Shown here in pieces: positions 13,340-61,938 of a DNA stretch of 64,000 nucleotides; within the stretch, counting starts at the first letter, position 1, and the number at the start of each line of letters is the position of its first letter. Under the pieces are notes generated by a model. That model saw only the letters and a list, made by a program, of their open reading frames with translations. It did not search any database and was not told the origin of the DNA. Source of the DNA: Nitrospirales bacterium (GTDB taxonomy: Bacteria > Nitrospirota > Nitrospiria > Nitrospirales > UBA8639); NCBI GenBank assembly GCA_020027205.1, contig JAHRAQ010000014.1:8548-72547 (forward strand), read 5' to 3'. The position numbers and the translations under genes are program-made.

Positions 13340-13380
13340 CCGTTATTCCCGACGTCCTCATTCGGGAATCCATCTTTCTG
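13340..13380 (+). repeat. REP-like hairpin element, family 1 variant
   Basis: CCGTTATTCCCGAcgtcctcaTTCGGGAATCCATCTTTCTG, preceded by GTCATTCC half-sites at ~13306 and ~13318. Confidence 0.8.
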
Positions 13381-13408
13381 TTTCCTGTCCGTCATTCCCC
13401 GCCCGCCA

Positions 13409-13801: not shown

Positions 13802-13874
13802 GGCTCACTCCTTGCGTTGGCGCATGTGACGGCGCCGCGACAACGCGGCGTCTCGTCGGCGCGCCGGGTCTTAT

Positions 13875-15437: not shown

Positions 15438-15439
15438 GC

Positions 15440-16387: not shown

Positions 16388-16457
16388 GCCGATGCCTTAT
16401 CCCGCCGCCCCGTGAGGCGGCGGTGCCATGACGACCCGACGCGGCCGTGCCCCGCGC

Positions 16458-18646: not shown

Positions 18647-18877
18647 CCACACCTGAATCGCGTGAACACGGCCCACACACCCCGCGCCGGCAGTATATGA
18701 CAGGCCCTTTGGAGATGGCAAGAACGCGGGGACGACCGGATGCCGAAGACCGCCCGCGGCGGCGGACACACTCCGCTCATCGTCATCGGCGTCGTCGGTG
18801 TCGGTGGCGTAAGCAGGCGAAGGCAACGCGCCGCGCGGTCGCCGGAGTCGCGGGAGACGGGTGAAACCCCGTGGCGT

Positions 18878-45376: not shown

Positions 45377-45395
45377 CGTCGGTCGATCACATCAT

Positions 45396-45424
45396 AAAAA
45401 AAGGGGGTGGATGTCTCCACCCCC
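45396..45424 (-). terminator. Rho-independent terminator (GGGGGTGGA-gaca-TCCACCCCC followed by T7 on the - strand)
   Basis: Perfect 9-bp GC stem plus U-run, 48 nt after the stop at 45472; a second hairpin GGCACAGA...TCTGTGCC lies at 45441-45466. Confidence 0.75.
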
Positions 45425-45471
45425 TTGAACGCCATGGACAGGCACAGAAGACGCGGCCTCTGTGCCCGGCA

Positions 45472-47295
45472 TTACACCTGGCCGCCGGCCTTCCTTCTGT
45501 TCGCCCGCCGGCCCAACACCCAGCCTTCCACAATAATGACTCCCAGCATGATAAACGCCGGATAGATATACGTCGCCGTCGGAATCGGCGGCTCCATCAC
45601 CAGATAGTAAAACGCGGAGACCGCCATCTTGCGACCCACATCCCCATTGTGTCCATCCCAGGCGAAAAAGACCATCGGGATATACTTGCCGCCTTCCAGG
45701 TAGGCCACTTCATCGTAATCGCCCTTGAGCGGCCGCTTCAGAATGACGGTCCACCGTCCGTGTGACCATTCGGCTTTGACGACCTCCACTTCTTCGGCAA
45801 AATCCACCTCGGTGAAATCCTCATCCCAGCCGGTACCTTCATAGACCGCCACGGTACCGTCCGCCGTCCATTTCGTAATATCAACGGGAAACGTTTCGTC
45901 ACCCCAGAAATACCGTGGTTTGCGCGGCGCGGGCAACTCCTGCCACTTGATCGGAAATTGGAACGCAATGCCGTCGTTGTACACCGCATACCGGTTCTGT
46001 TTCGCAGCAATGGATTCTTTATGGAAAGGATCTTTGTCAAACGACGATCCCAAGGGAGTTTGCTCCCGCACCCCGTAATCGTCCAGGTTCACTTCCGTCG
46101 GATCCCAGTCCATTTCCCCTTCCTGCATACTCTTGGTACGGTCGTTCCACCGGAACAAAAACTCAATATGCGTCTCGTTGTACAACGCCTGAACCCACAC
46201 GTCATCAATCCGATTCACAAAATTGCGCGGCTTATGGGTAATTTGCCCGCCCATGGCAATCCACCGCCGCCGGATGAGATTCCACCGCTCATCATCCGCC
46301 TCCGTGGGCAGATCGCCTTCCACGAATTTCGACGGAATCACGAAGTTGCTCTTGGGCTTGTCCGTCAACGGATCAATCGGTAACGCCTCCCCGTCCGCCA
46401 GTTGTTGCGCCGTGTCCCCCGAGACCTGCCCCTCCGGAACGGCAATGTCCATGACACGCTCGCACAACGAATTCACATAATTGGCAATATCCCATCGTTC
46501 ATCCACGCTCGTGTTATCGGCAAACGACGGCATCGGCGTGCCGTTCAACCCCGTTGAGAAGGTGCGAAAAATATTCTCCACGTTGTAGGGGTCCTGCCGA
46601 CTCCCCCGGAAATTCCAGCATTTATGCCAGTCCGCCGGTTGAATGGGAAAGCCCCAGTCATCCTTTAAATTAAACGCATTGCCGTCACCGCGCCCTTCCA
46701 GGCCGTGACATTCGATGCACTTTTTCTCCACCACCAACTCCGACCCCCGCTGGATGGATTCCGACGTTGCGTCTTTCGGGGACAATGACTCCAAATCCAG
46801 CACAAAAAACTCTTCAAACTCTTCATCCTGCCAACTCCTGTCCTCCACCAACTGCGTGGTCACAAACGCCAGCACGTCCCGGCGCTGCTGGTCGGTCAAA
46901 ATCCCCTCCCAGGGCGGCATGGCCGACCCCGGCAACCCATGGCTCACCGTGTCGAACAAATCCACGTCAATCAGCGGCAACTGCCCGCTCGCCGTATGCC
47001 GAATCTTGAACGTCCCGACGTTGAAATTCCGCGGCCTCGGCCACAAGCGCACCGCGCCCGGCCCGTCTCCGGCCCCGTCAACTCCGTGACACCAGACACA
47101 TTTCGTGAAATACACGCGCTTGCCCGCTTCAACGCTTTCCGCCGCGGGCGCCTGCGGCAGTCCCTGCGCGACAAACCCTTCCGGAAGTTCCTCCTGTGCC
47201 CACCCGCTTCCGGTCATACCCGGCCACATGCCCGCCCCCGCAAGCATCCCCCAGCATGCCGCTGTGACGGTGGCGATTTTCATCGTGCGCATCAT
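45472..47295 (-). CDS. Exported diheme cytochrome c fused to an EB_dh/DOMON-like (NxrC/EbdC-type heme-b) domain, C-terminal TM anchor
   Basis: Signal peptide MMRTMKIATVTAACWGMLAGAG; CVWCHG and CIECHG; C-terminal half DDVWVQALYNETHIEFLFRWND...NDGIAFQFP...GRWTVILKRPL...FAWDGHNGDVG resembles the EB_dh family; final hydrophobic helix + RRANRRK. Confidence 0.65.
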   Translation of the reverse strand: MMRTMKIATVTAACWGMLAGAGMWPGMTGSGWAQEELPEGFVAQGLPQAPAAESVEAGKRVYFTKCVWCHGVDGAGDGPGAVRLWPRPRNFNVGTFKIRHTASGQLPLIDVDLFDTVSHGLPGSAMPPWEGILTDQQRRDVLAFVTTQLVEDRSWQDEEFEEFFVLDLESLSPKDATSESIQRGSELVVEKKCIECHGLEGRGDGNAFNLKDDWGFPIQPADWHKCWNFRGSRQDPYNVENIFRTFSTGLNGTPMPSFADNTSVDERWDIANYVNSLCERVMDIAVPEGQVSGDTAQQLADGEALPIDPLTDKPKSNFVIPSKFVEGDLPTEADDERWNLIRRRWIAMGGQITHKPRNFVNRIDDVWVQALYNETHIEFLFRWNDRTKSMQEGEMDWDPTEVNLDDYGVREQTPLGSSFDKDPFHKESIAAKQNRYAVYNDGIAFQFPIKWQELPAPRKPRYFWGDETFPVDITKWTADGTVAVYEGTGWDEDFTEVDFAEEVEVVKAEWSHGRWTVILKRPLKGDYDEVAYLEGGKYIPMVFFAWDGHNGDVGRKMAVSAFYYLVMEPPIPTATYIYPAFIMLGVIIVEGWVLGRRANRRKAGGQV

Positions 47296-47355
47296 TGATT
47301 GTCCCTCTGCGTTACAAGTTCGTCCCCAAAGCCGCCACGGGCCGCCGGTCATGGG

Positions 47356-48321
47356 TTAGTCCCACGTCCGGGGGTAATACCCCGTGTGCCAGTATTCGAA
47401 CATGACCACTTTCCAGATTTCATCCACCGTCAAGTGCTGTTCCCATGGCGGCATCACCGAGGCCCAGGGGAAGCCTTCGCCCGGCAACCCGATGCCCCCC
47501 TTCGAGACGCGCCAGAACACAAACGTCTCCTGCAACTGCGCAATCGTCCCCGCATCCGTGAAATTCGCCGGAATCGGGTTAAACGCATAGGCCCACAACC
47601 CGCGGCCGTTTAAATTATCCCCGTGACAGAAATGGCAATTCTGAAAAAATATCTCCCCGCCTTCCCGCACGTACTTGATGTACCCGTCCGCGTTTGGGTC
47701 CCACGGATTGTAATTCGGATCATTCACGTCCTTCATCAACCGCCCCATGGCCTGCTCCACAATCCGGGCATCGGTGTATCCCTGATCGTAGTCTCCATCC
47801 GCATTGACCCGGTACGGATTTTCCACCACTTGCAACACGAACGTCTTCCCATGCACCTTGGTGGTCGCCGGCGGCGCCGGATGCACCGTCCGCAATTCAA
47901 TGGGTTCTTCAAAACTCGGCAGGAACGAACTGTACGCAAAGCCGCCCAGCGCCAGCGGAATCACGACCAACATGGCCGTGCGAACCGATTGATGAAAGTT
48001 AGTAATCCCGTCCATGACGTTGAGAATGGGACGCTTGAATTCCTGCCATTCCTTCTCGGACCCCGACACCCACATGAAAATCCCGCAGGCGGAGACCGTG
48101 CCGTAAATGGCGCGCACGCTGAAGGGAATGGGCGGATAAATACGGTATTTTAAATACAACTGAATGAACACAAACACGCCCACCCCCGCCCAAAATTTCG
48201 GAATCCCCATCCCGGACCGGTGAAGCGCCCAATTGACCAGGACAAACACCAAAATCGACAACCCCAACTCCGAAATCATCTGCATCGGCATGTAGCCTTC
48301 CACCAATTTCAGCCAAGTCAT
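47356..48321 (-). CDS. Membrane-anchored (about 4 TM) monoheme cytochrome c
   Basis: N-terminal TM helices; single CHFCHG; distal Met region SVMPPWE. Confidence 0.7.
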   Translation of the reverse strand: MTWLKLVEGYMPMQMISELGLSILVFVLVNWALHRSGMGIPKFWAGVGVFVFIQLYLKYRIYPPIPFSVRAIYGTVSACGIFMWVSGSEKEWQEFKRPILNVMDGITNFHQSVRTAMLVVIPLALGGFAYSSFLPSFEEPIELRTVHPAPPATTKVHGKTFVLQVVENPYRVNADGDYDQGYTDARIVEQAMGRLMKDVNDPNYNPWDPNADGYIKYVREGGEIFFQNCHFCHGDNLNGRGLWAYAFNPIPANFTDAGTIAQLQETFVFWRVSKGGIGLPGEGFPWASVMPPWEQHLTVDEIWKVVMFEYWHTGYYPRTWD

Positions 48322-48376
48322 CGTCCCTCTCTCCCGCGTTGCGAAATGACAGAATCCAAGGATTCGTCTTTCATCA

Positions 48377-49693
48377 TCAATTGAACGCTTCCAGCGCCGG
48401 CAACTCCTGCCCCTGCTTCAAACTGGACAGATAATCCACGATTTTATTGACGGCGCCGGCGCTTAATTTCTGCCCGAAATCCTTCGGCATCTGGTTGTCG
48501 GGAAAATCCTGCACCACGTACATGCTGGGATTTAAAATCGACTCCGTGATGTATTCGCGGGTCGACTGTGCGTGGCCCTTGTAAGCCGGATCCTTGAGCC
48601 TTTGCGGCGCATTGCTGCCTTCAAGCAACAGGGGGCCCACTTTTCCGGTGGCGCCTTCAATGCCGGGAATTGTGTGACAGGCGGGACACCCCGCTTTCAT
48701 AAAGAGATCGGTGATCGGCTCCTCTCCGGTGGCCAGCACGCCCCCCGCCGCCGCGTCATCGCCCTCACTCGCCTGTGGCCGGTCCGCCTCGGGAACAAAT
48801 TTCTCATAGGAGACTTCAATTTCATCGTACGTCGGCGCCTCCATCCCCTGGCGCACGTACAACCAAGTGTCCACCGCCGCCAACTCTCCAAGGGTCAGCG
48901 AAATCGGCGGCTTGTGAATTCTGGGCATGGGGCTTTCCGTGTCGTTGGTGCCTTTCACGCCAAATCCCGGCACGACAAAGCAACTCGGACAGGCATGGGA
49001 CTCCGCAATATATTCCTGCCCGTTTGTCGCGGTCCCCGACCCGTCAAACGCCTCTTTCTGAACCGTCGGGCGAGCGGTGGGATTATCCATATAATACAAT
49101 TCGTGCTTCAACCGTTCGTGGCTTCGGTCGGGGATCCCCCAGAGATTCGGCGCGCGTTCACTTAAAAATCCCTGATTGAAGCCATGACACAGGGGGCACT
49201 GGCCTTTCCCGATCGCCCCCTGAACCTTGCTTTGCCCAAGTCCGCCAAAGATGATTTTTTCGCCCTCGTCCGCCAACTGCTGCTGGGTCATGCTTTGGAA
49301 ATCCAGTTTCACTTCCGGCGGCGGGAAGCCGCCCTCGACCTGCGGCAACCAGTTACCGTATCCGGACAACGCGGCCGCCACAAAAAACATGGCCCCCCCG
49401 ATTTTCATGAGGGCCCCGATATTGGTGAAATAGATGCCCATGATGTACGTCAGGCAGGTGATCATGACCAACGACACCGGCAGCAGACGGCTTTCCCCGT
49501 AAAAATTGTTTTTGTAATTCGCAATGGCGATAAAGGCCAGGAAGACACACAACATGCCGATGCCCGTCTTGAAGAGGGCGTTCTTCCTTTGAACCGGGTC
49601 CGTGATGCGGACCTGGCAATACACCAGAAGCCCCGTCAAAAAGGCAAACGCCGGCCATCCAATTGAGATGGCTTCCGTAATGAGTTCACCCAC
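48377..49693 (-). CDS. Membrane-anchored (about 4 TM) diheme cytochrome c
   Basis: CPLCHG and CPACHT motifs; GTG start with GGAGGAGG 4 nt upstream. Confidence 0.7.
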   Translation of the reverse strand: MGELITEAISIGWPAFAFLTGLLVYCQVRITDPVQRKNALFKTGIGMLCVFLAFIAIANYKNNFYGESRLLPVSLVMITCLTYIMGIYFTNIGALMKIGGAMFFVAAALSGYGNWLPQVEGGFPPPEVKLDFQSMTQQQLADEGEKIIFGGLGQSKVQGAIGKGQCPLCHGFNQGFLSERAPNLWGIPDRSHERLKHELYYMDNPTARPTVQKEAFDGSGTATNGQEYIAESHACPSCFVVPGFGVKGTNDTESPMPRIHKPPISLTLGELAAVDTWLYVRQGMEAPTYDEIEVSYEKFVPEADRPQASEGDDAAAGGVLATGEEPITDLFMKAGCPACHTIPGIEGATGKVGPLLLEGSNAPQRLKDPAYKGHAQSTREYITESILNPSMYVVQDFPDNQMPKDFGQKLSAGAVNKIVDYLSSLKQGQELPALEAFN

Positions 49694-49713
49694 CGTCCTC
49701 CTCCAATCACAAA

Positions 49714-49747
49714 GTCACCCCGACCCTGCATTCAAGGTCGGGGTGAC
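49714..49747 (-). other. Intercistronic perfect 12-bp stem-loop (GTCACCCCGACC-10 nt-GGTCGGGGTGAC)
   Basis: Sits between the bd-like gene stop (49786) and the next cytochrome c start (49693). Confidence 0.6.
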
Positions 49748-49785
49748 TTCGCCCTAGTCGGTATCGTTGATGTGCCACGTCACGA

Positions 49786-51750
49786 TCAATAATGGCTTGT
49801 GGCCGGTTGCGGCGCGCCCCCCGGAACAGGCTGCATCGCCGGAACGGGCGCCTTCTTCGCGCCCAGCGCACCCAGCCAGAAGACAAAGAGAATCGTAATC
49901 CAGAAGAACAGCACGTTAAAGGAAATCACATTGGCCCCGAATCCGATGGTATGGGTATAGGCCCAGGGCGAGTTGTCACGCATAATCTCATTGACGTGCC
50001 AAAACAACCTGACCGAAGACCGGATATACCCCATCAATCCCATCATCCACGTAAAGGCCGTGGCCAGCATAATCAGGGCATATTGCGAACGGGGCGCGAT
50101 CTGACCCCACCGAATCGGCCCAAGTTCCCTGGACTGCCTTAACATCGCCAGATTCAACGCCGACCCGATAAAGAGACAGGACAGCGTTCCGGCAACCTGT
50201 GGAATGGAGAGTCCTATTCGCACGTTGGCGGGGATGAAATACCCGTAACAGGCCACCCAGATGTTATTGAGATGGGCCACGACAAAGAACGTGATCAGAA
50301 AAATATTGCCGAACTTCGCCCATTTCACCGCCGGCACCCGATTGCCGCGCTGATACCAGATGAAACTGGCGATCGTGGTCATGATGATCGCGTTAATGCC
50401 GCCGTTCTTCGCGGACATCACGCCATAGTTCCCCAGCACCGGATGCTGCTGACCGCCCATGGCTTTTAACTCGGCCGGCGTCATGACAATGGTGTGAGGC
50501 GTGATAAACACCAGCAGTCCCACCACGAGAATAAACACGAAATACTTGATATATCGCTGGAACCGCTCGCCCCCGGTCATGCGCCCCAGGGCCTGCCAGA
50601 GATAATAGTTCGTCGTCAAAAACAGAATGCCGATCATGGTGGCCTGAATGATAAACAACCAGGCCAGCAACCCGCCCATCAGAGTAATGCCCATCTGCTG
50701 ACGGTAGGCATACACTTCGCGCATGAGCCAGTAGCCGGCAAACGGCAGGGGAATCAAAAAGGCCACGCCGAGCGCCATCGCGATATACCCCATCCAGTCA
50801 TAGTGCGCGCGCTCTTCGTCATTCTTGGCCGACAGAAACCGGTAGGCCGCATAAGCCGCCACCACGCCGCCGCCGAAGGCCATATTTCCGAGAATCCGAT
50901 GCACGTTCAGCGGATTCCAGAGCGCCGTGTGGATGACGTGCCAGATATTCCCCAGATACCGCCCCTGCTCATCCACGCCGGCCGGCGACATCATAAAGCC
51001 GATCCAGGAATTGGCGAGGAACATCAACACCGTCCCGATCACATTCAACACCACCGACATGCTGGCATGGAGCCATTTCAGCATCCCCTCTTTCATCTTG
51101 TCCCATCCATAGTAGTAGATGTAGAGAGTGCCGCTCTCCGCCACGAACATCAGGGCATAGATATGCATGACCGGGCGGAAAATGCTGGACAGATATCCGA
51201 AGAAGGCGGGGTAGAGCGTCAGAAACGTGAAGATCAGAATGCCGCCGAGAATGGCCGTCAGCGAGTACGCCGTCAGGCTGATCTTGATAAAATCATACGC
51301 CAGTTGGTCGTACTTCTTCGCCATGGCCTTGTCTTTCGTGATCAACCCGGCGAATTCAATGCACATACAGAAAATCGGCACGGCCAGAACAAAACTGCCG
51401 TAGTACAGATGCTGCTGATTGGCGACCCAGAGCAGGACACGGCTTTCAAAGTTATAGCGCGGATAAAAGGCTTCCGTGTCCTCCGTTTTCGGCGCCGGCA
51501 TGCCGACGACGGGGCCTTCGGTTTTGTAGTAGACATCTCTCCCGACTTCGACCGGCTCCGCCTCGCCTTCCCCCTCGGCTTCTTGAGCCATCACAACATC
51601 GGGCGGCGGCCCGCCAGTCGCCGACGCGCCCCCCGCGGCCAGAGCCGGCAACGCCGTCAAAATCGGGAGCACCAACATGGCTCCCATCGCAAAGAGACCG
51701 CTGACCGCCAGAATATTTTTCCTGGTCTGTCTACTCATGAGGCGACCCAT
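49786..51750 (-). CDS. Cytochrome bd-like oxidase, CydA-related polytopic protein (paralog 1)
   Basis: QQHLYYGSF, FVAESGTLYIYYYGWDK, KWLH, LWNPLNVHR align by eye with E. coli CydA His19 / Glu99-Glu107 / His126 / His186 regions; long extra C-terminal TM region; AAGGAGG 6 nt upstream of ATG 51750. Confidence 0.8.
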   Translation of the reverse strand: MGRLMSRQTRKNILAVSGLFAMGAMLVLPILTALPALAAGGASATGGPPPDVVMAQEAEGEGEAEPVEVGRDVYYKTEGPVVGMPAPKTEDTEAFYPRYNFESRVLLWVANQQHLYYGSFVLAVPIFCMCIEFAGLITKDKAMAKKYDQLAYDFIKISLTAYSLTAILGGILIFTFLTLYPAFFGYLSSIFRPVMHIYALMFVAESGTLYIYYYGWDKMKEGMLKWLHASMSVVLNVIGTVLMFLANSWIGFMMSPAGVDEQGRYLGNIWHVIHTALWNPLNVHRILGNMAFGGGVVAAYAAYRFLSAKNDEERAHYDWMGYIAMALGVAFLIPLPFAGYWLMREVYAYRQQMGITLMGGLLAWLFIIQATMIGILFLTTNYYLWQALGRMTGGERFQRYIKYFVFILVVGLLVFITPHTIVMTPAELKAMGGQQHPVLGNYGVMSAKNGGINAIIMTTIASFIWYQRGNRVPAVKWAKFGNIFLITFFVVAHLNNIWVACYGYFIPANVRIGLSIPQVAGTLSCLFIGSALNLAMLRQSRELGPIRWGQIAPRSQYALIMLATAFTWMMGLMGYIRSSVRLFWHVNEIMRDNSPWAYTHTIGFGANVISFNVLFFWITILFVFWLGALGAKKAPVPAMQPVPGGAPQPATSHY

Positions 51751-51848
51751 GACCAACCTCCTTCTTGGCGTGGAAAGGCTCAATGGAAAGGCTCAAACAC
51801 CCGAAGCCCGGGGATTGCCCGGCTTGAGAAGCCACCGGAGACATGGCC

Positions 51849-51971
51849 TTACCGCAGAATATAGAAATAATCCAGTCCCTGCATATCCATCAGCACCCAG
51901 TCAAGGAACTGAAAGTACGCCACCGCAATCACAATGGAAATCCCGACGTATAAAGCCGTCTGCATCTGCAT
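51849..51971 (-). CDS. Micro-ORF, 40-aa single-TM peptide (MQMQTALYVGISIVIAVAYFQFLDWVLMDMQGLDYFYILR)
   Basis: GGGAGGAG 4 nt upstream of ATG 51971; one hydrophobic helix; immediately upstream of the bd-like gene. Confidence 0.45.
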   Translation of the reverse strand: MQMQTALYVGISIVIAVAYFQFLDWVLMDMQGLDYFYILR

Positions 51972-52009
51972 CGCACTCCTCCCGTCGTCCCGTCGTTCAG
52001 GAGACTCGT

Positions 52010-52123
52010 TCAGCAAGGACATTGAATGCCGGCAAACCAGTAGAAAAACCACAGGCCCACGGCACAAGTCACATAAAATATCGCCTTGCCTACCTTGATT
52101 GGAACCGGATCTGATTGGGCCAT
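52010..52123 (-). CDS. Micro-ORF, 37-aa single-TM peptide (MAQSDPVPIKVGKAIFYVTCAVGLWFFYWFAGIQCPC)
   Basis: AAGAGGA 5 nt upstream of ATG 52123; one hydrophobic helix; first ORF after the consensus promoter; below the ORF-track size cut-off. Confidence 0.45.
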   Translation of the reverse strand: MAQSDPVPIKVGKAIFYVTCAVGLWFFYWFAGIQCPC

Positions 52124-52259
52124 CGCAGTCCTCTTATGCTTAGATATTTAACCTTAGCGAATTATACGCTTGACACGACACCCGTGATATGATAAGCAAC
52201 AACCACGTTTTCTTTTGAGCGGGATGATACACATGCGAAGCAACGCCAAACTGTTTGAC

Positions 52260-52288
52260 ATTATAGTGTTGGCCGGGATGGTTGTCAA
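52260..52288 (-). promoter_or_regulatory. Perfect consensus sigma70 promoter TTGACA-N17-TATAAT
   Basis: -35 at 52288-52283 and -10 at 52265-52260 (read on the - strand), in an AT-rich gap ~135 nt upstream of the first micro-ORF. Confidence 0.6.
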
Positions 52289-52365
52289 CATTCTTTTGGC
52301 CGTCTTTTTGATCCTGTACTACTTTGATTTTCTTTAGGTTTTCCGCAATATCCCGCACGCCATTT

Positions 52366-53265
52366 TCAGCCGGGCAGCCCGCCACGGGGCGGCGGTTTCT
52401 TCTGGTCTGACGTCGCACACCGAAAGCCGATGGTTTCATCCCGGAAATCCGGGACCATGAAACTTCTGGCCGTGATTCGCAAATCCGTTCCATAACTCGT
52501 GTAGCCCGCGCCTCGAAGCGTTTTATACCCGCCGCGGTCCGCCACGGTCGCGGGTCGGGAATCATCGGGACGACCAACTTGCTCCCGGTACCAGTCATCC
52601 CCCCATTCCATCAAATTTCCAAAACCGTCATGCACGCCGAACGGGCTTCTGTCCAGGGGAAACGATCCCACGGGAGATGTCGCGTCATATCCATCCTCGC
52701 CGCCTCCCAGGTTCGCCTTGCGGGGTCTGGGAGAATTGCCCCACGGCCACAACCGTCCGTCCAGGCCGCGCATCGCTTTTTCCCATTCGGCTTCCGTGGG
52801 CAACCGGGCCTCTCGCCATCTGCAATAGGCATCCGCGTCGTACCAGGAGACATAGGCCACCGGCTGATTCGGCCCGCGCAACTGGGCCAGCCGTTTGGCA
52901 TATCGTGACGGAGGCCCCGGCTTGCGGTGCCCCGTGGCCTTCACAAATCGCCCGTACTGGTAATTCGTCACCTCATACCGGTCAATCCAAAATCCCGGAA
53001 GGGTGACGAGACGCTCGGGACGTTCATTCAACCCGCCCCGCGTGGTCCCCTGAATGAACGCACCGGGAGGAATCCACACCATGTCTTCCCCCACAAGAGC
53101 CGGCGGGGCGTCGGAGGAAAACACCTGCGTCGCCCGTGGCCGGCCCATGTCCGCGTGGTCTGGGTCGGGCGGCGGCGGCGTGGTCCCGCGAAAAATCCCC
53201 GCCAGCGGCATCCCGACCATAAACAGAATCACGGCCAGCAGAATCAGTTTCAGTCGCCCTTCCAT
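52366..53265 (-). CDS. FGE-sulfatase-domain (SUMF1/NirV/PvdO-like) protein, N-terminal TM anchor, lacks FGE catalytic Cys pair
   Basis: MVWIPPGAFIQG...FWIDRYEVTNYQY...QPVAYVSWYDADAYCRW...RLPTEAEWEKA...FGNLMEWGDD...IGFRCA. Confidence 0.85.
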   Translation of the reverse strand: MEGRLKLILLAVILFMVGMPLAGIFRGTTPPPPDPDHADMGRPRATQVFSSDAPPALVGEDMVWIPPGAFIQGTTRGGLNERPERLVTLPGFWIDRYEVTNYQYGRFVKATGHRKPGPPSRYAKRLAQLRGPNQPVAYVSWYDADAYCRWREARLPTEAEWEKAMRGLDGRLWPWGNSPRPRKANLGGGEDGYDATSPVGSFPLDRSPFGVHDGFGNLMEWGDDWYREQVGRPDDSRPATVADRGGYKTLRGAGYTSYGTDLRITARSFMVPDFRDETIGFRCATSDQKKPPPRGGLPG

Positions 53266-53307
53266 ACCCTCGCCGTCTCACGCCGCACCCGTTCCCCGAC
53301 CACCCCC

Positions 53308-54225
53308 TTACAAGGGCTGGTCGCCGTCCTCAACGGTCCGGGCGCAACGGAATCCTATCGTCGCGTCGGTGCGCCACATCTTGGCCGAAAACCGTTTGGT
53401 CACTCTCGCGTTAAGTTTGGAATCACGCCAGGTGCCCCCTCGGATGACTTTAAATTCCGTGCTGTCCGGCCCGGGAGGATTGAGGAACGGCGCCCGGTGA
53501 TAATAAGACGGGTCATACGTATCCGCCACCCATTCCGCGACGTTCCCCACCATGTCGTAGACCCCGTACGGACTCCGGCCGCCTTCATACGACCCCACGG
53601 GCGACAGATACCGCGCCCCGTCGCCGTCGCCGTCGATGTTGGACACCGTGTCGCTGAACTCATTGCCCCAAGGGTACAGCCGCCGGCCTTCCCCGCGCGC
53701 CGCTTTTTCCCATTCGGCTTCCGTGGGCAGCCGTTTTCCCGCCCAGCGGCAATAGGCAAACGCATCATTCCAGCCGATGCCCACCACGGGAAAATCCGGG
53801 TCCGTGAGGTGGGCGATGTCTTCCTCAAACACCGGTACCTGCGGGGCTTCCCGCTTGGTCATGTTGACAAAACGCTCGTATTCCGACTGCGTTACTTCCT
53901 TGAGATCGACAAAATAGGCCTTGAGATACACGGGATGCGCGGGAGCCTCGTCGGGATCGCCCTGCTCATAGCCCATGGTAAAAGGCCCTTCGGGGATTTC
54001 CACCATCTCCCGCCCCTCATTGCCGGCCATGGTCCGGTACATGGAAAAATCCCGAAGCGCCACCGGCTCAATAATCCGCGGCTCCGCGCGTTGTTCGGAC
54101 CGTGAGACCAGCCGGTCCCGCTCGGTCCGCCCTTTATACGTTTCATAGACCAGCATCACCATCATCAGGATAAACGAGGCAAAAACAAAGATGATGGAGC
54201 CGATCAGGACACCGCGATTTTCCAT
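53308..54225 (-). CDS. FGE-sulfatase-domain (SUMF1/NirV/PvdO-like) protein, N-terminal TM anchor, lacks FGE catalytic Cys pair
   Basis: MVEIPEGPFTMG...YFVDLKEVTQSEY...PVVGIGWNDAFAYCRWAGKRLPTEAEWEKAARG...YDMVGNVAEWVAD...IGFRCA; GGAGG 5 nt upstream of ATG 54225. Confidence 0.85.
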   Translation of the reverse strand: MENRGVLIGSIIFVFASFILMMVMLVYETYKGRTERDRLVSRSEQRAEPRIIEPVALRDFSMYRTMAGNEGREMVEIPEGPFTMGYEQGDPDEAPAHPVYLKAYFVDLKEVTQSEYERFVNMTKREAPQVPVFEEDIAHLTDPDFPVVGIGWNDAFAYCRWAGKRLPTEAEWEKAARGEGRRLYPWGNEFSDTVSNIDGDGDGARYLSPVGSYEGGRSPYGVYDMVGNVAEWVADTYDPSYYHRAPFLNPPGPDSTEFKVIRGGTWRDSKLNARVTKRFSAKMWRTDATIGFRCARTVEDGDQPL

Positions 54226-54308
54226 ACGCCTCCGGCAATCACCCGTTGACGGCCGCGCACACATCGGAGCGCCCGCAGGCCCCCATCGTCACAGCCGCAC
54301 AGGATAAG

Positions 54309-54509
54309 TTACGCGCGTTTGGACAGCAACCCGGCCAGGACAAACGCCGCGACGCCGCCGCACAGTATCGACCCCAGCAACAAATAATACTCCGGATCGC
54401 CATGGTGCACGCCAGATGCAAACCCCCGCAACAAGACGGCGGCCATCACCGTGGCGGCCACCATGACCCCGGACCACAGCAGCCGTGCCGCGTCGCACTT
54501 CTCATTCAT
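54309..54509 (-). CDS. Small 2-TM membrane protein (66 aa)
   Basis: Two hydrophobic helices; 8-nt overlap with the upstream gene; no family recognised. Confidence 0.45.
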
Positions 54510-54912
54510 GGCTATCCCCGCTTTCCCCAAGTACCGGATGATTCCGTGGCGCCGGCATCGCCAGCGTCGGCGGCGGCGCGGAGGGCGTCACACGCGGCCG
54601 CCGGAACCTGTCCATCAACATCGAGATCCATATGCCCAAAAATCCCCCGATGGCCGCCCCGGAACCCGCGCCGACCGTGATATTGCCGGCCCCCGACACC
54701 GCCCAGGCCAAGGCCCCGCCTCCCATCGCCCCGGCCACGATGCCGGCGAAAAACCGGCGGCCTCCAAGCAGCCCGATCCCCATCCCCAGGAGCAACCCCA
54801 TGCCCGTGGCCACGTAGAGAAACGCGCCACCCAGCAATATGCCGATCAGCGCCCCGACCGTCCCCATGACCGCGACGCCCAGCGCCACGTCCGGCACCCA
54901 GGCTTTAACCAT
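54502..54912 (-). CDS. Glycine-zipper-rich membrane protein
   Basis: GxxxG-type runs ([32 protein letters not shown]...[16 protein letters not shown]); GGAGGG 6 nt upstream of ATG 54912. Confidence 0.55.
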
Positions 54913-54947
54913 GGCGGCCCTCCGCGTCACCGGCCGCCGTCCCCGCC

Positions 54948-55589
54948 TCATTCCGCGCTGACTTCAATCGCCCCAAAATCCACTTCCACACCGGGGCCGC
55001 TTTGCAGCGAAATACCCCACGCCATCGGCGCCGGGTCATGCCCGTGAATCTCCCGAAAATCCCGGTAGGCATTGACCTCTTCCTCGACCCACGCCCCCAG
55101 CGGATGCCGGCCCGAACGCACCACCACCTCCGCCGCCCCGAACAACCCGCCGTCCGTGACCGACCCCCGGCGTTTCCGATCACTCCAGACGTATTTGGTG
55201 GACACCGGAATAAACAGCACATCCGTATCCAGATTCGCAAAGACCGCCGCAAAAAACTCCGCGCCCTCCGGGGCCGAATGCAGACGCCACCGCCACCGCA
55301 GCACGGGATGCGTGCGGGGGTTCCATGCAATCCGCCTGGTGTACACCCGCTGATTCGCCCGCGCGCCTTTCAGAAACGCGGCGTCGCCCTCGGTGTGCAC
55401 GGCGTACGCCTCTTTCGCCGTCGCCGTGCTGCGCGACCCTTCCCATCCGCGAGGAAAGCCATCCGCGTCGGGATGACGAAAATCCTCAAGCGCCACGGTC
55501 GGAGCCGCTGGCCCGCCGACCAGCGGCCAGCCGACCACCATCAGCGCCACGGCCCCCGTGAGGAGCAGGCGTCGTCGTCGTCCGTTCAC
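54948..55589 (-). CDS. Exported protein, tentatively DUF3047/concanavalin-like
   Basis: Signal peptide [17 protein letters not shown]; the family call is a weak recollection only; GTG start overlaps the bd-like 2 stop (GTGA). Confidence 0.45.
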
Positions 55590-57493
55590 GCCGACTCCTC
55601 TCGTGACAACGCCCGCGCAAAAGCCACACCGCCGTCGGCGGCGGGTTGATCGGCCTCCGTCATCCGCTCTTGCGCGGACAGCCGGAACAACACAAACACC
55701 GACACCCAGAAGACGGCCATGTTCATGGTCACCATCTTGGCAACAAACGCCAGGTGCGGCGTGAACGCCCAGGGCGACAGATCCGCCAGCACCTCATGCA
55801 CGTGCCAGCCCACCCGCCCGGCGGAGCGAATGTACCCCATCAGCCCCATCACCCAGGAAAACGTCGCCGCCACCCCGAACAACGCCACCATCCCCCGCAC
55901 GGAAATCCCGCCCCATTGCACGGGGCCGCGCCGCTCACTCCCCCTTACCATCAGATGATTGATCAACAATCCGCCCGCCACCACCATCGCCGTCGTCGCA
56001 CTCTGCGGGACGGACAACCCGACCCGAACGTGCGCGGGAAGATAAAATCCATACACCGCGACCCAGATGATATTGCCCATGCCCGCGACAAACAACGCCG
56101 CTATCGCCGCGTTGCCAGCCCGCGCCCAGGGCACCCGGATGATCCGGTTCGCCCGCCCGTACAACAACGCGCTCAACCCCGTCAGACAGACCATCACATT
56201 CATCGCCCCGTTTTTCGCCGACATCACCCCAAACGCCCCGATCACCGGATGCTGCGCCGCCCCCACCGCCTTCATCTCCCCCGCCGTCATCGCCATCGTA
56301 TGCGGCGTCACCCACACCACAAACGCCGCCATCAGCCCCCCGACAATCCATTTGAACCAGGGATGATACCGTCCGCCGTCACGGAACCGCCCAAGCGATT
56401 GCCAGACGTAATAATTGATCCCCAGAAACAACGCCCCCACCGTCGCCGCCTGAATCACAAACGCCCACGACAGCATCCCCCCCATCATCGTCATCCCCAT
56501 CTCCTGACGGAACGTAAAGACGGCGCGCATCAGCCAGTATCCCGCAAACGGCATCGGCACCAGCGCCCCCACCATCACCACCAGAAACACGCAGCCCATC
56601 CAATCGTAGTACGCCCGCGCCTCCCGCCGCCGGGTCTGCAAAAACCGATAGGCCGCGAACGCCACCACCACGGCGCCCCCGGACATCACATCCGCCAGAA
56701 ACCGATGCGCGTTGAGCGGATTCCACAACGGCGAATGCAGCACGTGCCAGACATTCCCCAGAAACTGCCCCTCGGCGTTCACCCCCGCCGGCGCCATCAT
56801 GAACGACGCCCACGCATTCACCAGCAGCAGCAACAGCACCCCCATGCCGTTGACCAGCACCCCGAGCGACAGATGCAGCCATTTCCGGACGCCGGACGCC
56901 AGACCAGCCCAACTGTAGTAATACACCACCAGCAGCAGGGATTCCCCGACGAACACCGAGGCATACACCGGCATCATGCTCTTGAACGTCGCCCCCAGAT
57001 ACCGCATCACATCGGGATACAGCGTCACCAACGCCCCCAGCATCACGCCCCCCAGCCACGCCGTCACCGCCATCGCCAGCACCCCCACCCGCAGCACGTC
57101 CCGGCCCAGCCCATCGAACCGCGCCGCCGCCCGCCCGTCGCGACGCGACAGCCCAATGAATTCGAGCAGCAGCGCAAACAACGGCAGCGCCAGCACAAAG
57201 CCCCCGAAATAGGTATGCTGCTGCGTCACAAACCAGATGACGGTACGGTTATCCAGATACCGCCACTGCGGATACCTCGGCGCCACCGCCGCGGCGGGCA
57301 AACTCTGCGGAACGCCCTCCGTCTGATAATAGACGTCCCGCGTCGACTGCGATGCCGACGCCGCATCCACCCCCGCCGTCGGCGCGCCGGCCACGACACA
57401 GACCCCGCCCAACAGCAGCATCACCACCCCGCGCCGCACCATCCCCATCACGTCCGTCCCCCGATTACAAACGCCGGCAGCCGTCATTCCCAC
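55586..57493 (-). CDS. Cytochrome bd-like oxidase, CydA-related polytopic protein (paralog 2)
   Basis: Same landmarks as paralog 1 (QQHTYFGGF, FVGESLLLVVYYYSW, KWLH, WHVLHSPLWNPLNAHR, TPHT, AQHPVIG, GWHVHEV); start uncertain (57493 GTG, or ATG 57448/57442). Confidence 0.8.
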   Translation of the reverse strand: MGMTAAGVCNRGTDVMGMVRRGVVMLLLGGVCVVAGAPTAGVDAASASQSTRDVYYQTEGVPQSLPAAAVAPRYPQWRYLDNRTVIWFVTQQHTYFGGFVLALPLFALLLEFIGLSRRDGRAAARFDGLGRDVLRVGVLAMAVTAWLGGVMLGALVTLYPDVMRYLGATFKSMMPVYASVFVGESLLLVVYYYSWAGLASGVRKWLHLSLGVLVNGMGVLLLLLVNAWASFMMAPAGVNAEGQFLGNVWHVLHSPLWNPLNAHRFLADVMSGGAVVVAFAAYRFLQTRRREARAYYDWMGCVFLVVMVGALVPMPFAGYWLMRAVFTFRQEMGMTMMGGMLSWAFVIQAATVGALFLGINYYVWQSLGRFRDGGRYHPWFKWIVGGLMAAFVVWVTPHTMAMTAGEMKAVGAAQHPVIGAFGVMSAKNGAMNVMVCLTGLSALLYGRANRIIRVPWARAGNAAIAALFVAGMGNIIWVAVYGFYLPAHVRVGLSVPQSATTAMVVAGGLLINHLMVRGSERRGPVQWGGISVRGMVALFGVAATFSWVMGLMGYIRSAGRVGWHVHEVLADLSPWAFTPHLAFVAKMVTMNMAVFWVSVFVLFRLSAQERMTEADQPAADGGVAFARALSREESA

Positions 57494-57495
57494 AC

Positions 57496-58527
57496 CTACC
57501 CCGACGCCCGCTGCCCCATTTTGGCAAACAGTTCCATCACAAACGGGCAGCGTTTCAACGTTTCCGGCACGATGCCCCGCGTACGCGCTTCAACGTGCAC
57601 CCGCGCCCCCAGCGCATACCCATACCCGGCCGTCATCGCCCCCGTCATCCCGCCCACGAGCAGATGCGCGCCGAACGGCACGCGCTCCCATTGCAACACA
57701 AACAGCACAACGCCCATCTGCGTCGCATAATACGTCAACGCAAACGCCAGACACGGCCACATCCAAAACCGGAACACCTCCCACCATGGCCGGGCCTTGA
57801 GACGGTCGGCGGCAAGGACATGCGGGTATCGACCCGACAAAAAGGCGCCGTGCGCGCCACAGGCCGCCACCACGCACACCGCCGCCGCCAACCCCGCCTC
57901 GCCCCCCGCGCCGTCCCCGCCGAGACCGGACGCCGCCGCCACCGCGCCGCCGGCCGCCAGCCCCGCGCCCGCCCAACCGACCAGCCGCCGCGCGTCACGC
58001 CCGGGCAGACCACGCCACACGCCGCCGTCGGGAAACGTCACCATCCGCCCGCCCTGCGCTTCCAGGCGCACGACGTGCCCGATTTCAAACGCATCGCGCG
58101 TGACCGCCGTGCAGGCAATGATCAATGCCATCATCGCCGGCCCTTCGGGATGCAGGAGAAAATTATAGTCGACAAACAGCGCCAGCAACGCCAAGACCAA
58201 CAGCGACAGTTGCACGCCATAGACACATCCGATCCATCCGCCCACCCACAGGAGACGGCGAACGCCGTCCGTGCGCACGATGCGCGCCGGCGACGCCCGC
58301 CGCCCCATCGCATACGCCCAGTACGCGGTCGGCGTCGCGAGCATCCCGCTCATCGCCAACAACAGCCATGGATCGGAAAGCGGACGCGCGTGAGTCAAGA
58401 TCCGGTAAAGAAGAAACACCACCAGCCCCGGCGCGACCATGACCCAGCGTTTTCGCCGTCGAACGTCGGGGGCCGTGACGGCCGCCTGCAGTTGGGGCAG
58501 CACCCGAAGCGCTAATCGATGCAGCAT
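57496..58527 (-). CDS. Polytopic membrane protein, no recognised family
   Basis: 343 aa, multiple hydrophobic helices plus a Gly/Ala-rich loop; GGGAG 5 nt upstream of ATG 58527. Confidence 0.55.
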   Translation of the reverse strand: MLHRLALRVLPQLQAAVTAPDVRRRKRWVMVAPGLVVFLLYRILTHARPLSDPWLLLAMSGMLATPTAYWAYAMGRRASPARIVRTDGVRRLLWVGGWIGCVYGVQLSLLVLALLALFVDYNFLLHPEGPAMMALIIACTAVTRDAFEIGHVVRLEAQGGRMVTFPDGGVWRGLPGRDARRLVGWAGAGLAAGGAVAAASGLGGDGAGGEAGLAAAVCVVAACGAHGAFLSGRYPHVLAADRLKARPWWEVFRFWMWPCLAFALTYYATQMGVVLFVLQWERVPFGAHLLVGGMTGAMTAGYGYALGARVHVEARTRGIVPETLKRCPFVMELFAKMGQRASG

Positions 58528-58584
58528 CGCACTCCCAGGAGGGCATAACCCGGCGCGTAAAACCGGCGACGAGCGGAGTCCCTG

Positions 58585-58654
58585 CCGTCATTCCGCGCCA
58601 TCGACGCCATTGACGACGCCATTGACCGCAGAACCCCCCGCACGCGGAATCCAT
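58585..58654 (+). repeat. REP-like element, family 2 (copy with a 12-bp internal duplication GACGCCATTGAC)
   Basis: CCGTCATTCCGCGCCATCGACGCCATTGACGACGCCATTGACCGCAGAACC...CGCGGAATCCATCCGAAAGA, compare 25995-26064. Confidence 0.75.
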
Positions 58655-58686
58655 CCGAAAGACGTTTCAATGGCCGGCTCCGAATG

Positions 58687-59163
58687 TCACGCCGGCGCCG
58701 ACAGCCCGAAATACCGCGTCTTGACTTCCTCCATCAGCGCCACCGTCACCTCCGGCATCTCCCGGTCCTGCGCGGTGCGTTCCAGTTCCACGCGGGCCAT
58801 CGCGCGCACCGCGTCGGGAATGCGGGACAACCGGCGCGCCGCGTCGGGATGCCAGGACACCGGGCCGGGCGACCGGGCCTCCGTCATCACCCCCGTCGAA
58901 ATCAGCGTCAGACGCTGCCGACCGGCATACTCTTCCACCTCGTGCCGCACCAGACACGCCGCGTAGGGCGGCAGCCGGTCCAGACGATGTCGCGCCTCGT
59001 CCGTCCAGACCGGATGGTCAAAAAAACGGGACGCCTCCCGGGCGTCCGCCTCAATCCCCACCTGACATCCGCACGTCTGACAGGCGTAACGCAGCAGGGC
59101 GCGCCCCGCCTCCCCTTCTTCGATGAGACGACATTGAAAACCCGACCCGCAGCCGCACGTCAC
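58687..59163 (-). CDS. Cys-rich protein with two PCP_red-like (protochlorophyllide reductase subunit B C-terminal-like) repeats
   Basis: MTCGCGSGFQC...CQTCGC then VWTDEARHRLDRLPPYAACLVRHEVEEYA and VSWHPDAARRLSRIPDAVRAMARVELERTA. Confidence 0.6.
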   Translation of the reverse strand: MTCGCGSGFQCRLIEEGEAGRALLRYACQTCGCQVGIEADAREASRFFDHPVWTDEARHRLDRLPPYAACLVRHEVEEYAGRQRLTLISTGVMTEARSPGPVSWHPDAARRLSRIPDAVRAMARVELERTAQDREMPEVTVALMEEVKTRYFGLSAPA

Positions 59164-59169
59164 CGGGGA

Positions 59170-59886
59170 CTATCCGATTTTTCCGGGATACAGAATATAC
59201 AGCATGGCATACGTCGCGCTGCCGGTGACAAACAGAACGCAATACACCAGGATCGTCACCCGGCCCAGAATCCGGTGACGCCGCGCGCCGTTCGGCCAGA
59301 TACGCTGAATCGCCACCTCCACGCCGAACACCATCGCCAGCAGCGCGACCAGGCCGGCATAGACGCCGAATTTGCCCATGGAAAACCCGGCGGTGACCAC
59401 GCGACCGAGAAACAACAGCAGCACGACGGCGGTCACGCCCCCAAACATCATCCCGATTTTTTTCCGGGTGGTTTGCAGCAGGGCGTCTTGCAGGATGCGC
59501 CGCCCGTTGACAAACATCTGGGAGCGAAACCCCAGGACAATCATATACACCGCCATGATCAACCCAATCACGACCAGAAGAATGTGCGCCGTCAGCAACG
59601 GCACAAACACGGTGTCATACATCCACTGCGACCCGCCGAACCCTTCCTTCCCTTCAAAGGCCAGCACCCCCAGTTGGCGAAACAGATAATAACTCGTGAA
59701 AAACGCGAGCATGGCCGCCATGCCCCCCAGCATCAGCCAGTGATGCCCGGTCCCCTTGCCGCGTTTGGCCTGCACGCCGCCGACAAGAAACAGCACGGTG
59801 AACAACAGCGCCATCGTCTGACTGATGTCGGCCCCCATCGTCGCATGGGTTCCGGCAAATCCCGGGTCCCGCAACCATTCAGCCAT
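59170..59886 (-). CDS. 6-TM membrane protein, DUF420/CtaM-like C-terminus
   Basis: C-terminus RRHRILGRVTILVYCVLFVTGSATYAMLYILYPG resembles the DUF420 signature as I recall it; start moved to MAEWL (59886) because the upstream extension translates a REP-like motif (AFAGMTKE). Confidence 0.5.
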   Translation of the reverse strand: MAEWLRDPGFAGTHATMGADISQTMALLFTVLFLVGGVQAKRGKGTGHHWLMLGGMAAMLAFFTSYYLFRQLGVLAFEGKEGFGGSQWMYDTVFVPLLTAHILLVVIGLIMAVYMIVLGFRSQMFVNGRRILQDALLQTTRKKIGMMFGGVTAVVLLLFLGRVVTAGFSMGKFGVYAGLVALLAMVFGVEVAIQRIWPNGARRHRILGRVTILVYCVLFVTGSATYAMLYILYPGKIG

Positions 59887-61890: not shown

Positions 61891-61938
61891 CTTCTCTCCT
61901 CCCTTAAAATGACCTTCAAATCCGAACAAGTGCCACCT

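Follow-up and report, generated by a model that had tools for sequence, protein, structure and literature searches.

The gene cluster that we describe here lies on the (-) strand of a 64-kb stretch of DNA from a Nitrospirales bacterium (contig JAHRAQ010000014.1; the whole stretch is called the window below, and all co-ordinates refer to it), where it runs from about 52.3 down to 45.4 kb. It consists of six closely spaced genes, namely two micro-open reading frames (micro-ORFs), a CydA-like membrane protein that we call A, and three cytochrome proteins, and it is almost certainly the Nitrospirales copy of a respiratory module that is conserved across four phyla. The cluster has already been described and is biochemically uncharacterised; ours is another orthologue, from a different species, of a module known under four names: bd-like_3/alt_NxrC_2, kustd1709-1712, OR-N2 and TO_1. 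Both functional ideas that have to be weighed, a terminal oxidase and an anchor for nitrite oxidoreductase (NXR) with complex-III-like reverse electron transport, are likewise already published. We favor a quinone-linked, non-oxidase electron-transfer mechanism of the complex III kind, to which we give a probability of roughly 0.45. More tentatively, we propose that A-type OR-N2 modules may not reduce O2 at all and may form a third class of 'complex III', with CydA as scaffold, that passes electrons reversibly between quinone and either cytochrome c or a cupredoxin.

Much of the case turns on where the module occurs outside Nitrospirales. A HMMER search of 1.8 billion cluster representatives returned only 900 related clusters, several of which are long proteins with a bd-like domain fused to a dihaem-cytochrome-like domain; a profile of distant representatives gave matches dominated by Nitrospira A-type proteins and no new taxa. 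Searching with a fusion as query located fusions in the anammox bacteria Candidatus Scalindua rubra, S. sediminis and Anammoxibacter and in Acidobacteria (Sulfidibacter corallicola and metagenome-assembled genomes), along with unfused relatives of ~600 amino acids (aa) in Methylomirabilota/Rokubacteria. We read the gene neighborhoods of nine such loci, three of anammox type, four from Methylomirabilota/Rokubacteria and two from Acidobacteria. The fusion of Scalindua rubra is followed by a monohaem cytochrome c and then by a protein that joins dihaem-c and EB_dh domains, that of a 5.1-Mb ENA contig is followed by a trihaem-c protein with EB_dh, and on the Anammoxibacter contig the fusion stands alone. 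All four Methylomirabilota/Rokubacteria loci (L082, L085, L087 and L088) have a bd-like gene, two cytochromes c, a cytochrome c with EB_dh and a protein of ~230 aa, and continue on the same strand with COX2, COX1, CtaA, CtaB and COX3 at gaps of -4 to ~80 nt. The two acidobacterial loci (L083 and L086) read Usp+PCP_red, fusion, cytochrome c, cytochrome c with EB_dh, a small gene and a ~230-aa protein, and go on to COX1, COX3, COX4 and, further on, COX2 (SCO1). A complete haem-copper oxidase operon thus lies downstream of the module and on its strand in 6/6 loci from these two groups, at gaps of -4 to ~100 nt and with COX1 and COX2 within 10 kb. A search for the same two genes found no haem-copper oxidase in the window, nor within 10 kb of the module in the three anammox-type loci or in 80 Nitrospirales loci taken from a scan of species-representative genomes, which serve as our comparison set throughout. 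The module and the COX operon of the six loci appear to be a single transcription unit with the cupredoxin-like gene between them, an arrangement of which we found no mention in the literature searched.

That these are the same module is indicated by tblastn, which supports orthology for all four large subunits: the bd-like proteins are 44-48% identical, the monohaem cytochromes of the anammox, Methylomirabilota and Acidobacteria loci are 32-38% identical (E 1e-45 to 1e-65), and the NxrC-like proteins match at 1e-59 to 1e-78. The ~230-aa protein of the outside loci is the counterpart, also by tblastn, of a 277-aa cupredoxin-like protein encoded upstream of the cluster in the window. Homologues of the latter adjoin the module in Scalindua, Methylomirabilota and Acidobacteria (E 8e-9 to 5e-27), and the copper-ligand motif H...C-x2-H-x2-M of the protein is unchanged in all four phyla. 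A preliminary description of this region, made by eye from the sequence, had presented the six genes as a complete cytochrome c:O2 oxidoreductase module with a defined subunit list. The pairing of a CydA-like protein with cytochromes c stands, and we accept as right its view that they are co-transcribed; the role in O2 reduction is weakened by the anammox and COX contexts, and the list itself was too short, given that the cupredoxin-like protein accompanies the module across phyla and that the third cytochrome is an NxrC-like haem b/c protein.

Protein A starts at ATG 51750, behind an AAGGAGG motif. Its reading as a CydA-derived bd-like protein is borne out by Pfam and by fold: Cyt_bd_oxida_I matches at 7e-20, in the N-terminal half only (profile positions 3-241 of 418), and an AlphaFold2 model (pLDDT 83, pTM 0.83) has an N-terminal signal/anchor helix, a short periplasmic segment and then 14 transmembrane (TM) helices. 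In a Foldseek search of the PDB with this model the top 10 matches are all CydA (subunit I) chains (E 2e-8 to 6e-5), CydB chains come next at E ~0.02, and no OR-N-type structure is among the matches. What had been taken for a long extra C-terminal TM region does include inserted helices and is otherwise largely a diverged CydA C-terminal half, since Foldseek aligns ~550 columns. The E. coli CydA reference for our alignments was checked against 6rko_A, and mycobacterial CydA (9r2g) was also aligned. By this alignment H125, E216, H239, N258, H295 and M456 of A are the equivalents of E. coli His19, Glu107, His126, Asn148, His186 and Met393, the His186 equivalence having been placed by a phmmer alignment to 9r2g together with a constant +26 offset; the three landmarks first picked out by eye (H125, E216 and H295) are among them. 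Two positions depart from CydA, Glu99 becoming Tyr209 and Glu445 becoming Ser589, and the Q-loop residues Lys252/Glu257 have no counterpart, Glu257 aligning to a gap and TM helices replacing the Q-loop region.

In these features A is an OR-N2 protein. The OR-N2 row of Table S6 in Murali, Gennis and Hemp 2021 lists H99, Y183, E190, Y197, Y199, H213, H269, M430/N434, S563 and W569, and A has H125, Y209, E216, Y223, Y225, H239, H295, M456/N460, S589 and W595, at a constant offset of +26 from the OR-N2 reference TKS59798.1. It shares with that class the 14 TM helices, the lack of a quinol site and the H/Y/E/H/H/M/S/W signature, and the window also shows the operon trait of the class, several cytochromes c plus an EbdC homologue; Murali 2021 treated OR-N2 proteins as O2 reductases with cytochrome c the likely donor. 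With canonical CydAB(X) (E. coli, 6rko) A has in common the subunit I fold, the haem b558 ligands His186/Met393, the His19 haem ligand, and Glu107, His126 and Asn148. Unlike CydAB(X), it has no CydB, Q-loop or Lys252/Glu257, carries Ser for Glu445 and Tyr for Glu99, has five extra TM helices and c-type cytochrome partners, and is accompanied by micro-ORFs that by eye are unrelated to CydX. With a Pfam match that is not full length, no Q-loop and no CydB, it is not a member of the canonical cytochrome bd quinol oxidases. The statement that the 64 kb hold no CydB agrees with our searches, in which no ORF tested from the window matched Cyt_bd_oxida_II and no CydB was seen in the 80 syntenic loci. 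More than 6000 homologues of A were found, the best 120 being 77-94% identical to it and, where a source is named, from Nitrospirales; across the order identity is 77-97%. All 26 of 26 family-core residues of A are identical in the anammox and Rokubacteria/Methylomirabilota proteins. The fused acidobacterial proteins (L083 and L086) have Lys at the His19 equivalent, H125 of A, with the other signature residues unchanged; this histidine is said to be universal in the bd superfamily.

The partner subunits were described as three proteins with 2, 1 and 2 CxxCH motifs, and those counts are correct. The 438-aa dihaem cytochrome matches the Kuenenia Kustd1711 structure (7zs0_A) through both of its haem domains (E 2e-8). 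The third protein does have its two CxxCH motifs, and it has in addition an EB_dh haem-b domain and NxrC-like character that had been overlooked: it reads as a signal peptide, two cytochrome c domains, EB_dh and a C-terminal TM helix, and its true start may be an internal MMRTMK. Pfam assigns Cytochrom_C at 2e-22 and EB_dh at 2e-13 (51.2 bits against a cut-off of 33.3), and TIGR03477, 'DMSO reductase family type II enzyme, haem b subunit', matches at 6e-20, with a score under that model's full-length cut-off since the match covers a domain only. The dihaem part matches 6h5l_B at 1.6e-46, and a PDB profile search with the EB_dh domain found no solved relative. Haem-b domains of the EB_dh kind form the gamma subunit in periplasmic enzymes of the type-II DMSO-reductase family, NXR among them.

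Among published clusters the closest is that of Nitrospira moscoviensis. According to Mundinger 2019 (PMC6606698), this species has four bd-like paralogues, one of which, bd-like_3 (NITMOv2_3643, 1905 nt), is followed by a dihaem c (3642, 1314 nt), a monohaem c (3641, 1038 nt) and alt_NxrC_2 (3640), a 'cytochrome c containing gamma subunit', with bd-like_4 (NITMOv2_3650) six genes from bd-like_3. Both clusters have the order bd-like, dihaem c, monohaem c and cytochrome-c-containing NxrC, similar sizes (634/437/345 aa against 654/438/321 aa in the window) and a second bd-like paralogue with six genes between. The RefSeq numbering in the expression table of that paper leaves no slot for the micro-ORFs. 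The orthology appears sound, judged by gene context and sizes, and on the same grounds the window cluster is bd-like_3/alt_NxrC_2 and not the NIDE0901-type locus. The latter also belongs to the OR-N family, with the order bd-like, two cytochromes c and alternative NxrC; it differs in adjoining a Rieske/cytochrome b complex and an OR-N1 paralogue, and no Rieske or cytochrome b gene and no OR-N1 paralogue is among the 64-kb ORFs tested. For NIDE0901, putative CuB-like histidines have reportedly been claimed. Mundinger 2019 (PMC6606698) gives the role of proposed terminal oxidase to the N. moscoviensis counterpart of NIDE0901, bd-like_2 (NITMOv2_0737), whose neighbors are the Rieske/cytochrome b complex, bd-like_1 and alt_NxrC_1. 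The four genes of the bd-like_3 cluster rank 17, 29, 37 and 39 by transcript (bd-like_3 being 37), against 185 for bd-like_2 and 921 for bd-like_4, which lies ~10-fold below bd-like_3 (262 vs 2645) (PMC6606698).

Conservation of the cluster in Nitrospina and anammox bacteria is reported in Mundinger 2019 (PMC6606698) and Lucker 2013 (PMC3578206). The nxr cluster of Kuenenia contains kustd1709 (dihaem), 1710 (monohaem), 1711 (dihaem) and 1712 (cydA-like; PMC6423088), the same order of dihaem protein, monohaem c, dihaem c and CydA-like protein as in the window. It differs in coming from a strict anaerobe and in being set beside nxrABC; its CydA-like protein and dihaem c have separate gene entries. 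The structure of Kustd1711 is solved, and its haems lie at ~+350 mV. TO_1 of the manganese oxidiser Manganitrophus (Yu, bioRxiv 10.1101/2021.11.15.468770) has the composition seen in the window and was called a terminal oxidase with no biochemistry behind the name; A and a representative of a Manganitrophaceae/Nitrospira cluster share 44% identity. The preliminary description was right that the class was proposed from Nitrospira/Nitrospina genomics and lacks biochemical characterisation, since statements from 2024-2025 (PMC10839748, PMC12342949) still note the want of experimental confirmation and our literature searches found no biochemical or structural study of the cluster.

How might the module work? 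The identical signature in strict anaerobes, in aerobes with the module in an aa3 operon and in nitrite oxidisers without a haem-copper oxidase argues for one shared chemistry. O2 reduction would fit the nitrite oxidisers, would be redundant beside an aa3 oxidase and is hard to justify in strict anaerobes; two terminal oxidases within one operon is an unlikely design. Reversible electron transfer between the membrane and a periplasmic carrier would fit all three settings, and the quinone pool would be the simplest partner. Because the bd-like protein and the dihaem cytochrome are a single polypeptide in Scalindua, Anammoxibacter and Acidobacteria, these two subunits probably work as one complex. 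In the mechanism that we favor, periplasmic NxrAB, soluble cytochrome c or the cupredoxin would hand electrons to the NxrC-like subunit, from which they would pass through about five c haems to a haem pair held by H295/M456 and H125 of A, where the membrane haem site would most likely exchange electrons with the quinone pool and not with O2. The module would work forwards in Methylomirabilota and Acidobacteria, supplying the haem-copper oxidase encoded next to it. Nitrite oxidisers and anammox bacteria would use it in reverse, with the proton-motive force raising electrons from nitrite to the level of quinone, where they would serve reverse electron transport and the fixation of CO2. The Nitrospirales version may also offer, through its NxrC-like subunit, a docking site for periplasmic NxrAB, and it would carry lineage-specific micro-subunits, one of them ending Cys-Pro-Cys. 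Genes for alternative complex III (ACIII) sit beside caa3 oxidase genes in the act-cox arrangement, and the module of Methylomirabilota and Acidobacteria resembles ACIII in combining multi-haem-c and polytopic membrane subunits directly upstream of a haem-copper oxidase operon. The resemblance is not one of homology, ACIII having NrfD-like and FeS subunits and no CydA-like haem protein. MobA acts in synthesis of the Mo-bis-MGD cofactor, which NXR needs, and the position of mobA 3' of the terminator, seen in 62/80 loci, fits a link to this molybdoenzyme and is counted here in favor of a non-oxidase role. A complex-III-like role in reverse electron transport has been suggested before, by Lucker 2013 (PMC3578206) and Mundinger 2019 (PMC6606698).

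Several points weigh against a complex-III-like role. There is no recognisable quinone-binding site in A, with the Q-loop and Lys252/Glu257 missing (cf. PMC3578206), and the residues of the bd O2 site and proton channel are kept as equivalents of His19, Glu107, His126 and Asn148, which are what an oxidase would need. Most Nitrospirales are without haem-copper oxidases, and of their bd-like paralogues A shows the highest transcription and the strongest conservation; both Murali 2021 and Yu 2022 interpret the family as O2 reductases. Anaerobes can retain oxidases for detoxification, and the adjacency to COX genes is circumstantial, with nine loci sampled outside Nitrospirales. Nitrospira also has conventional complex III copies.

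The strongest rival, put forward in the preliminary description and in Murali 2021 (as OR-N2) and Yu 2022 (as TO_1), is a cytochrome c:O2 oxidoreductase, in which electrons from NXR or cytochrome c would reach the His125-ligated haem and reduce O2 to water, with protons drawn from the cytoplasm along a Glu216/His239 pathway, so making proton-motive force like canonical bd oxidases. The CydA fold and the conserved equivalents of His19, His186, Met393, Glu107, His126 and Asn148 speak for it, as does the lack of haem-copper oxidase genes in the window and within 10 kb in the 80 Nitrospirales loci, and many Nitrospinota have OR-N enzymes as sole candidate oxidases. Expression points the same way: the N. 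moscoviensis orthologue is the top-expressed bd-like paralogue (rank 37 vs 185 for bd-like_2), and TO_1 stands at the 98th expression percentile in Manganitrophus (Yu, bioRxiv 10.1101/2021.11.15.468770). We nevertheless think it rather unlikely. Strict anaerobes have and express a module with an identical signature, which in Kuenenia lies inside the nxr cluster, and 6/6 aerobes sampled from two further phyla keep it in one operon with a complete haem-copper oxidase. With Ser in place of Glu445, the third-haem ligand, and Tyr in place of Glu99, A has ligands for at most two of the three bd haems, and in the acidobacterial homologues the His19 equivalent is itself lost to Lys. The Nitrospira literature (PMC6606698) gives the oxidase role to NIDE0901/bd-like_2 instead.

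It is also conceivable, and in our view improbable, that the cluster is a membrane dock and electron hub for NXR, with the NxrC-like protein anchoring NxrAB and the c haems distributing electrons to bd-like_2, cbb3 and bc complexes, or else that the CydA-like site handles NO, nitrite or H2O2. The gamma-subunit domain (EB_dh/TIGR03477) with its TM anchor would suit a dock, the Kuenenia copy lies within the nxr cluster, and the Kustd1711 haems at ~+350 mV match the nitrite/nitrate couple; Mundinger 2019 (PMC6606698) argues from a 62-kDa band and proposes an anchor. The Methylomirabilota and Acidobacteria loci tell against it, lying beside COX genes with no NXR gene within ~10 kb, and a 14-TM protein with 77-97% identity across the order, conserved haem ligands and the Glu/His pathway looks built for catalysis more than for scaffolding. 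Least probable is a CydAA'-type heterodimer in which the CydA-like paralogue B would stand in for the missing CydB: CydAA' pairs are documented or proposed in the superfamily, and B is syntenic, lies 3.8 kb upstream on the same strand and keeps the signature residues, but at least four conserved genes and A's own promoter separate the two, the N. moscoviensis orthologue of B is transcribed ~10-fold less (262 vs 2645), and each of the nine outside loci has only one CydA-like gene beside the module, so that we judge B unlikely as the partner. Another candidate, a 'split CydB' made of the 4+4+1 TM helices of the cytochrome subunits, has no support, since profile searches of the two TM domains against PDB sequences gave nothing significant.

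The transcription unit and its parts, judged from their conservation, are real and not products of chance, given the conserved promoter, the conserved terminator and the purifying selection on the micro-ORFs. A single (-) strand unit from a perfect sigma70 promoter to a GC hairpin with a T-run had been proposed, and both ends are present. The promoter is perfect in 74/77 related Nitrospirales loci and has one mismatch in 2 more, which fits the high transcript ranks of the N. moscoviensis orthologues. At the other end, the GC-rich hairpin has 11 bp and an attached T-run, and a hairpin (dG <= -10 kcal/mol) with a T-run follows the last gene in 66/66 loci, with loop sequences that vary. A sub-threshold Rfam match to McaS over the terminator (E 0.8, in a 44-59 kb scan) is taken as chance.

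Both single-TM micro-ORFs that had been noted are there, each with a Shine-Dalgarno (SD) motif, and both are under purifying selection. The core of micro-ORF 1 has non-synonymous variation (pN) of 0.078 against synonymous variation (pS) of 0.78, and its C-terminal GIQCPC is invariant in nearly all of 78 sequences; micro-ORF 2 has pN 0.25 against pS 0.73 and a conserved LMDxQGLDYFY tail. A shifted frame, used as control, gave ratios of ~1 or above. The Cys-Pro-Cys end of micro-ORF 1 resembles a metal-binding site, and the neighborhood is rich in copper-related genes (cupredoxin-like, FGE-like and DUF420).

A third micro-ORF, which like paralogue B and the cupredoxin-like gene had gone unnoted in the preliminary description, runs antisense across the promoter. 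An alignment of the promoter from 19 loci has a three-base periodicity that continues through the -35 and -10 boxes and ends at a conserved CAT. The antisense ORF is unbroken in 77 sequences (the window and 76 loci), its protein is almost invariant (pN/pS 0.076), the ATG is conserved and preceded by purine-rich SD-like motifs, and the stop codon is variable. Codons 17-19 span the operon's -35 box and codons 10-11 its -10 box. Four synonymous third positions within the hexamers, including the third base of an ATA isoleucine, are fixed in 77/77, and outside the hexamers every degenerate third position varies; this contrast shows that selection acts on the promoter DNA itself, beyond the coding constraint. 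The operon promoter thus sits within the coding sequence of a nearly invariant antisense micro-gene, which may also oppose it. Within the operon's 5' untranslated region a conserved (+) strand TTGACA (52170-52175) is followed ~15-16 nt on by GATAAG (GATACT or GATAAT in relatives; span 52170-52196), which could be a candidate promoter for the antisense micro-ORF; were it real, transcription would begin in both directions from overlapping, opposed sites. None of the three micro-proteins has a tblastn match in the nine loci outside Nitrospirales, the sampled anammox loci (Scalindua rubra, Anammoxibacter and L084) included, and the antisense ORF goes unmentioned in the available passages of Mundinger 2019 (PMC6606698).

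Table 1. Features of the module and its surroundings in the 64-kb window.
Feature	Position	Strand	Basis or remark
Cupredoxin-like protein, 277 aa, H...C-x2-H-x2-M, C-terminal CarboxypepD_reg-like domain	61096..61929	(-)	weak Pfam match
O-methyltransferase	59879-60922	(-)	Pfam
DUF420 membrane protein	59170-59997	(-)	Pfam
PCP_red zinc-finger-like protein	58687-59163	(-)	Pfam
343-aa membrane protein, no family	within 57496..60922	(-)	upstream of B
CydA-like paralogue B, 635-aa ORF, start uncertain	55586..57493	(-)	orthologue of bd-like_4
DUF3047 protein	54948-55589	(-)	Pfam; between B and operon
Gly-rich 3-TM protein	54502-54951	(-)	between B and operon
Membrane-anchored FGE-sulfatase-domain proteins, tandem	53308-54264, 52366-53265	(-)	Pfam 1e-54 and 3e-58
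Antisense micro-ORF, 34 aa, single TM, MRSNAKLFDIIVLAGMVVNILLAVFLILYYFDFL	52233..52337	(+)	contains the operon's -35/-10 boxes
Sigma70-type promoter TTGACA-N17-TATAAT	52260..52288	(-)	sole 12/12 match in 45-53 kb scan
Micro-ORF 1, 37 aa, one TM segment	52010..52123	(-)	SD motif AAGAGGA; in 77/80 loci
Micro-ORF 2, 38 aa, one TM segment	51849..51965	(-)	SD motif GGGAGGAG; in 79/80 loci
CydA-like 'bd-like' haem-b membrane protein A, 654 aa, OR-N2 type	49786..51750	(-)	orthologue of N. moscoviensis bd-like_3
Dihaem cytochrome c, 438 aa, 4 N-terminal TM segments, CPLCH + CPACH	48377..49693	(-)	Pfam Cytochrom_C
Monohaem cytochrome c, 321 aa, ~4 TM segments, CHFCH	47356..48321	(-)	Pfam Cytochrome_CBB3 + Cytochrom_C
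NxrC-like protein, 626-aa ORF, CVWCH + CIECH, C-terminal TM helix	45472..47352	(-)	orthologue of alt_NxrC_2
Intrinsic terminator, stem GGGGGTGG...CCACCCCC then T7	45394..45426	(-)	hairpin 45426-45401
mobA, molybdenum cofactor guanylyltransferase family	44759-45376	(-)	directly after operon terminator

The cluster belongs to a ~17-kb block that is syntenic across the 80 Nitrospirales loci. Its 5' part holds the cupredoxin-like gene, O-methyltransferase, DUF420, PCP_red, the 343-aa membrane protein, paralogue B and DUF3047, and its 3' part the Gly-rich membrane protein, the two FGE-sulfatase-like genes, the two micro-ORFs, A, two cytochromes c, the NxrC-like gene and mobA. The host species is outside the representative set, its closest DNA match there being ~85% identical. 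Synteny of the genes between B and the operon (52366..55589) holds in 70-76/80 loci, that of the FGE pair in 75-76/80, and that of the genes upstream of B (57496..60922) in 65-66/80. DUF420 is the family of the aa3-oxidase factor CtaM. Paralogue B, found in every locus long enough to contain it, is 45% identical to A over 595 aa (tblastn), matches Cyt_bd_oxida_I at 2e-14, and has Glu at the Glu107 position, as in OR-N2, and not the Gly of OR-N1; six conserved genes lie between it and A.

The wider window offers some further observations. G+C content is 0.53-0.59 over ~32000-54000, against 0.62-0.68 on both sides, and this low-G+C stretch contains the bd-like operon, secDF/yajC, tgt, argS and a sigma54 two-component pair. 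A (-) strand cluster for haem biosynthesis and cytochrome c maturation lies at 12218-18826, with ALAD (hemB), a fused HemD/uroporphyrin methylase, hemC, hemA and Cytochrom_C_asm, and an additional TP_methylase gene is at 20174-20866 (+). Long ORFs opposite real genes, such as 54309-54530 (-), 55646-57730 (+) and 43716-44903 (+), have no homologue in the 80 loci or no Pfam match, and are most likely spurious products of high GC content.

Much of the nitrate on Earth is made by Nitrospirales, and two questions about their energy metabolism meet in this cluster: which enzyme reduces O2, and by what route nitrite-derived electrons reach the quinone pool. The cluster is among the 40 most transcribed gene sets of N. 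moscoviensis and contains the most conserved bd-like paralogue, which makes it central to both. What is new here is the identical catalytic signature in strict anaerobes together with the fixed placement upstream of aa3-type oxidase operons in two phyla, contexts that call into question an O2-reductase function for this OR-N2 clade. The comparison offers a concrete and inexpensive route to deciding between an oxidase and a complex-III-like enzyme in a cultured non-nitrifier, Sulfidibacter corallicola, and it cautions against labelling OR-N2 genes as terminal oxidases in metagenome studies.

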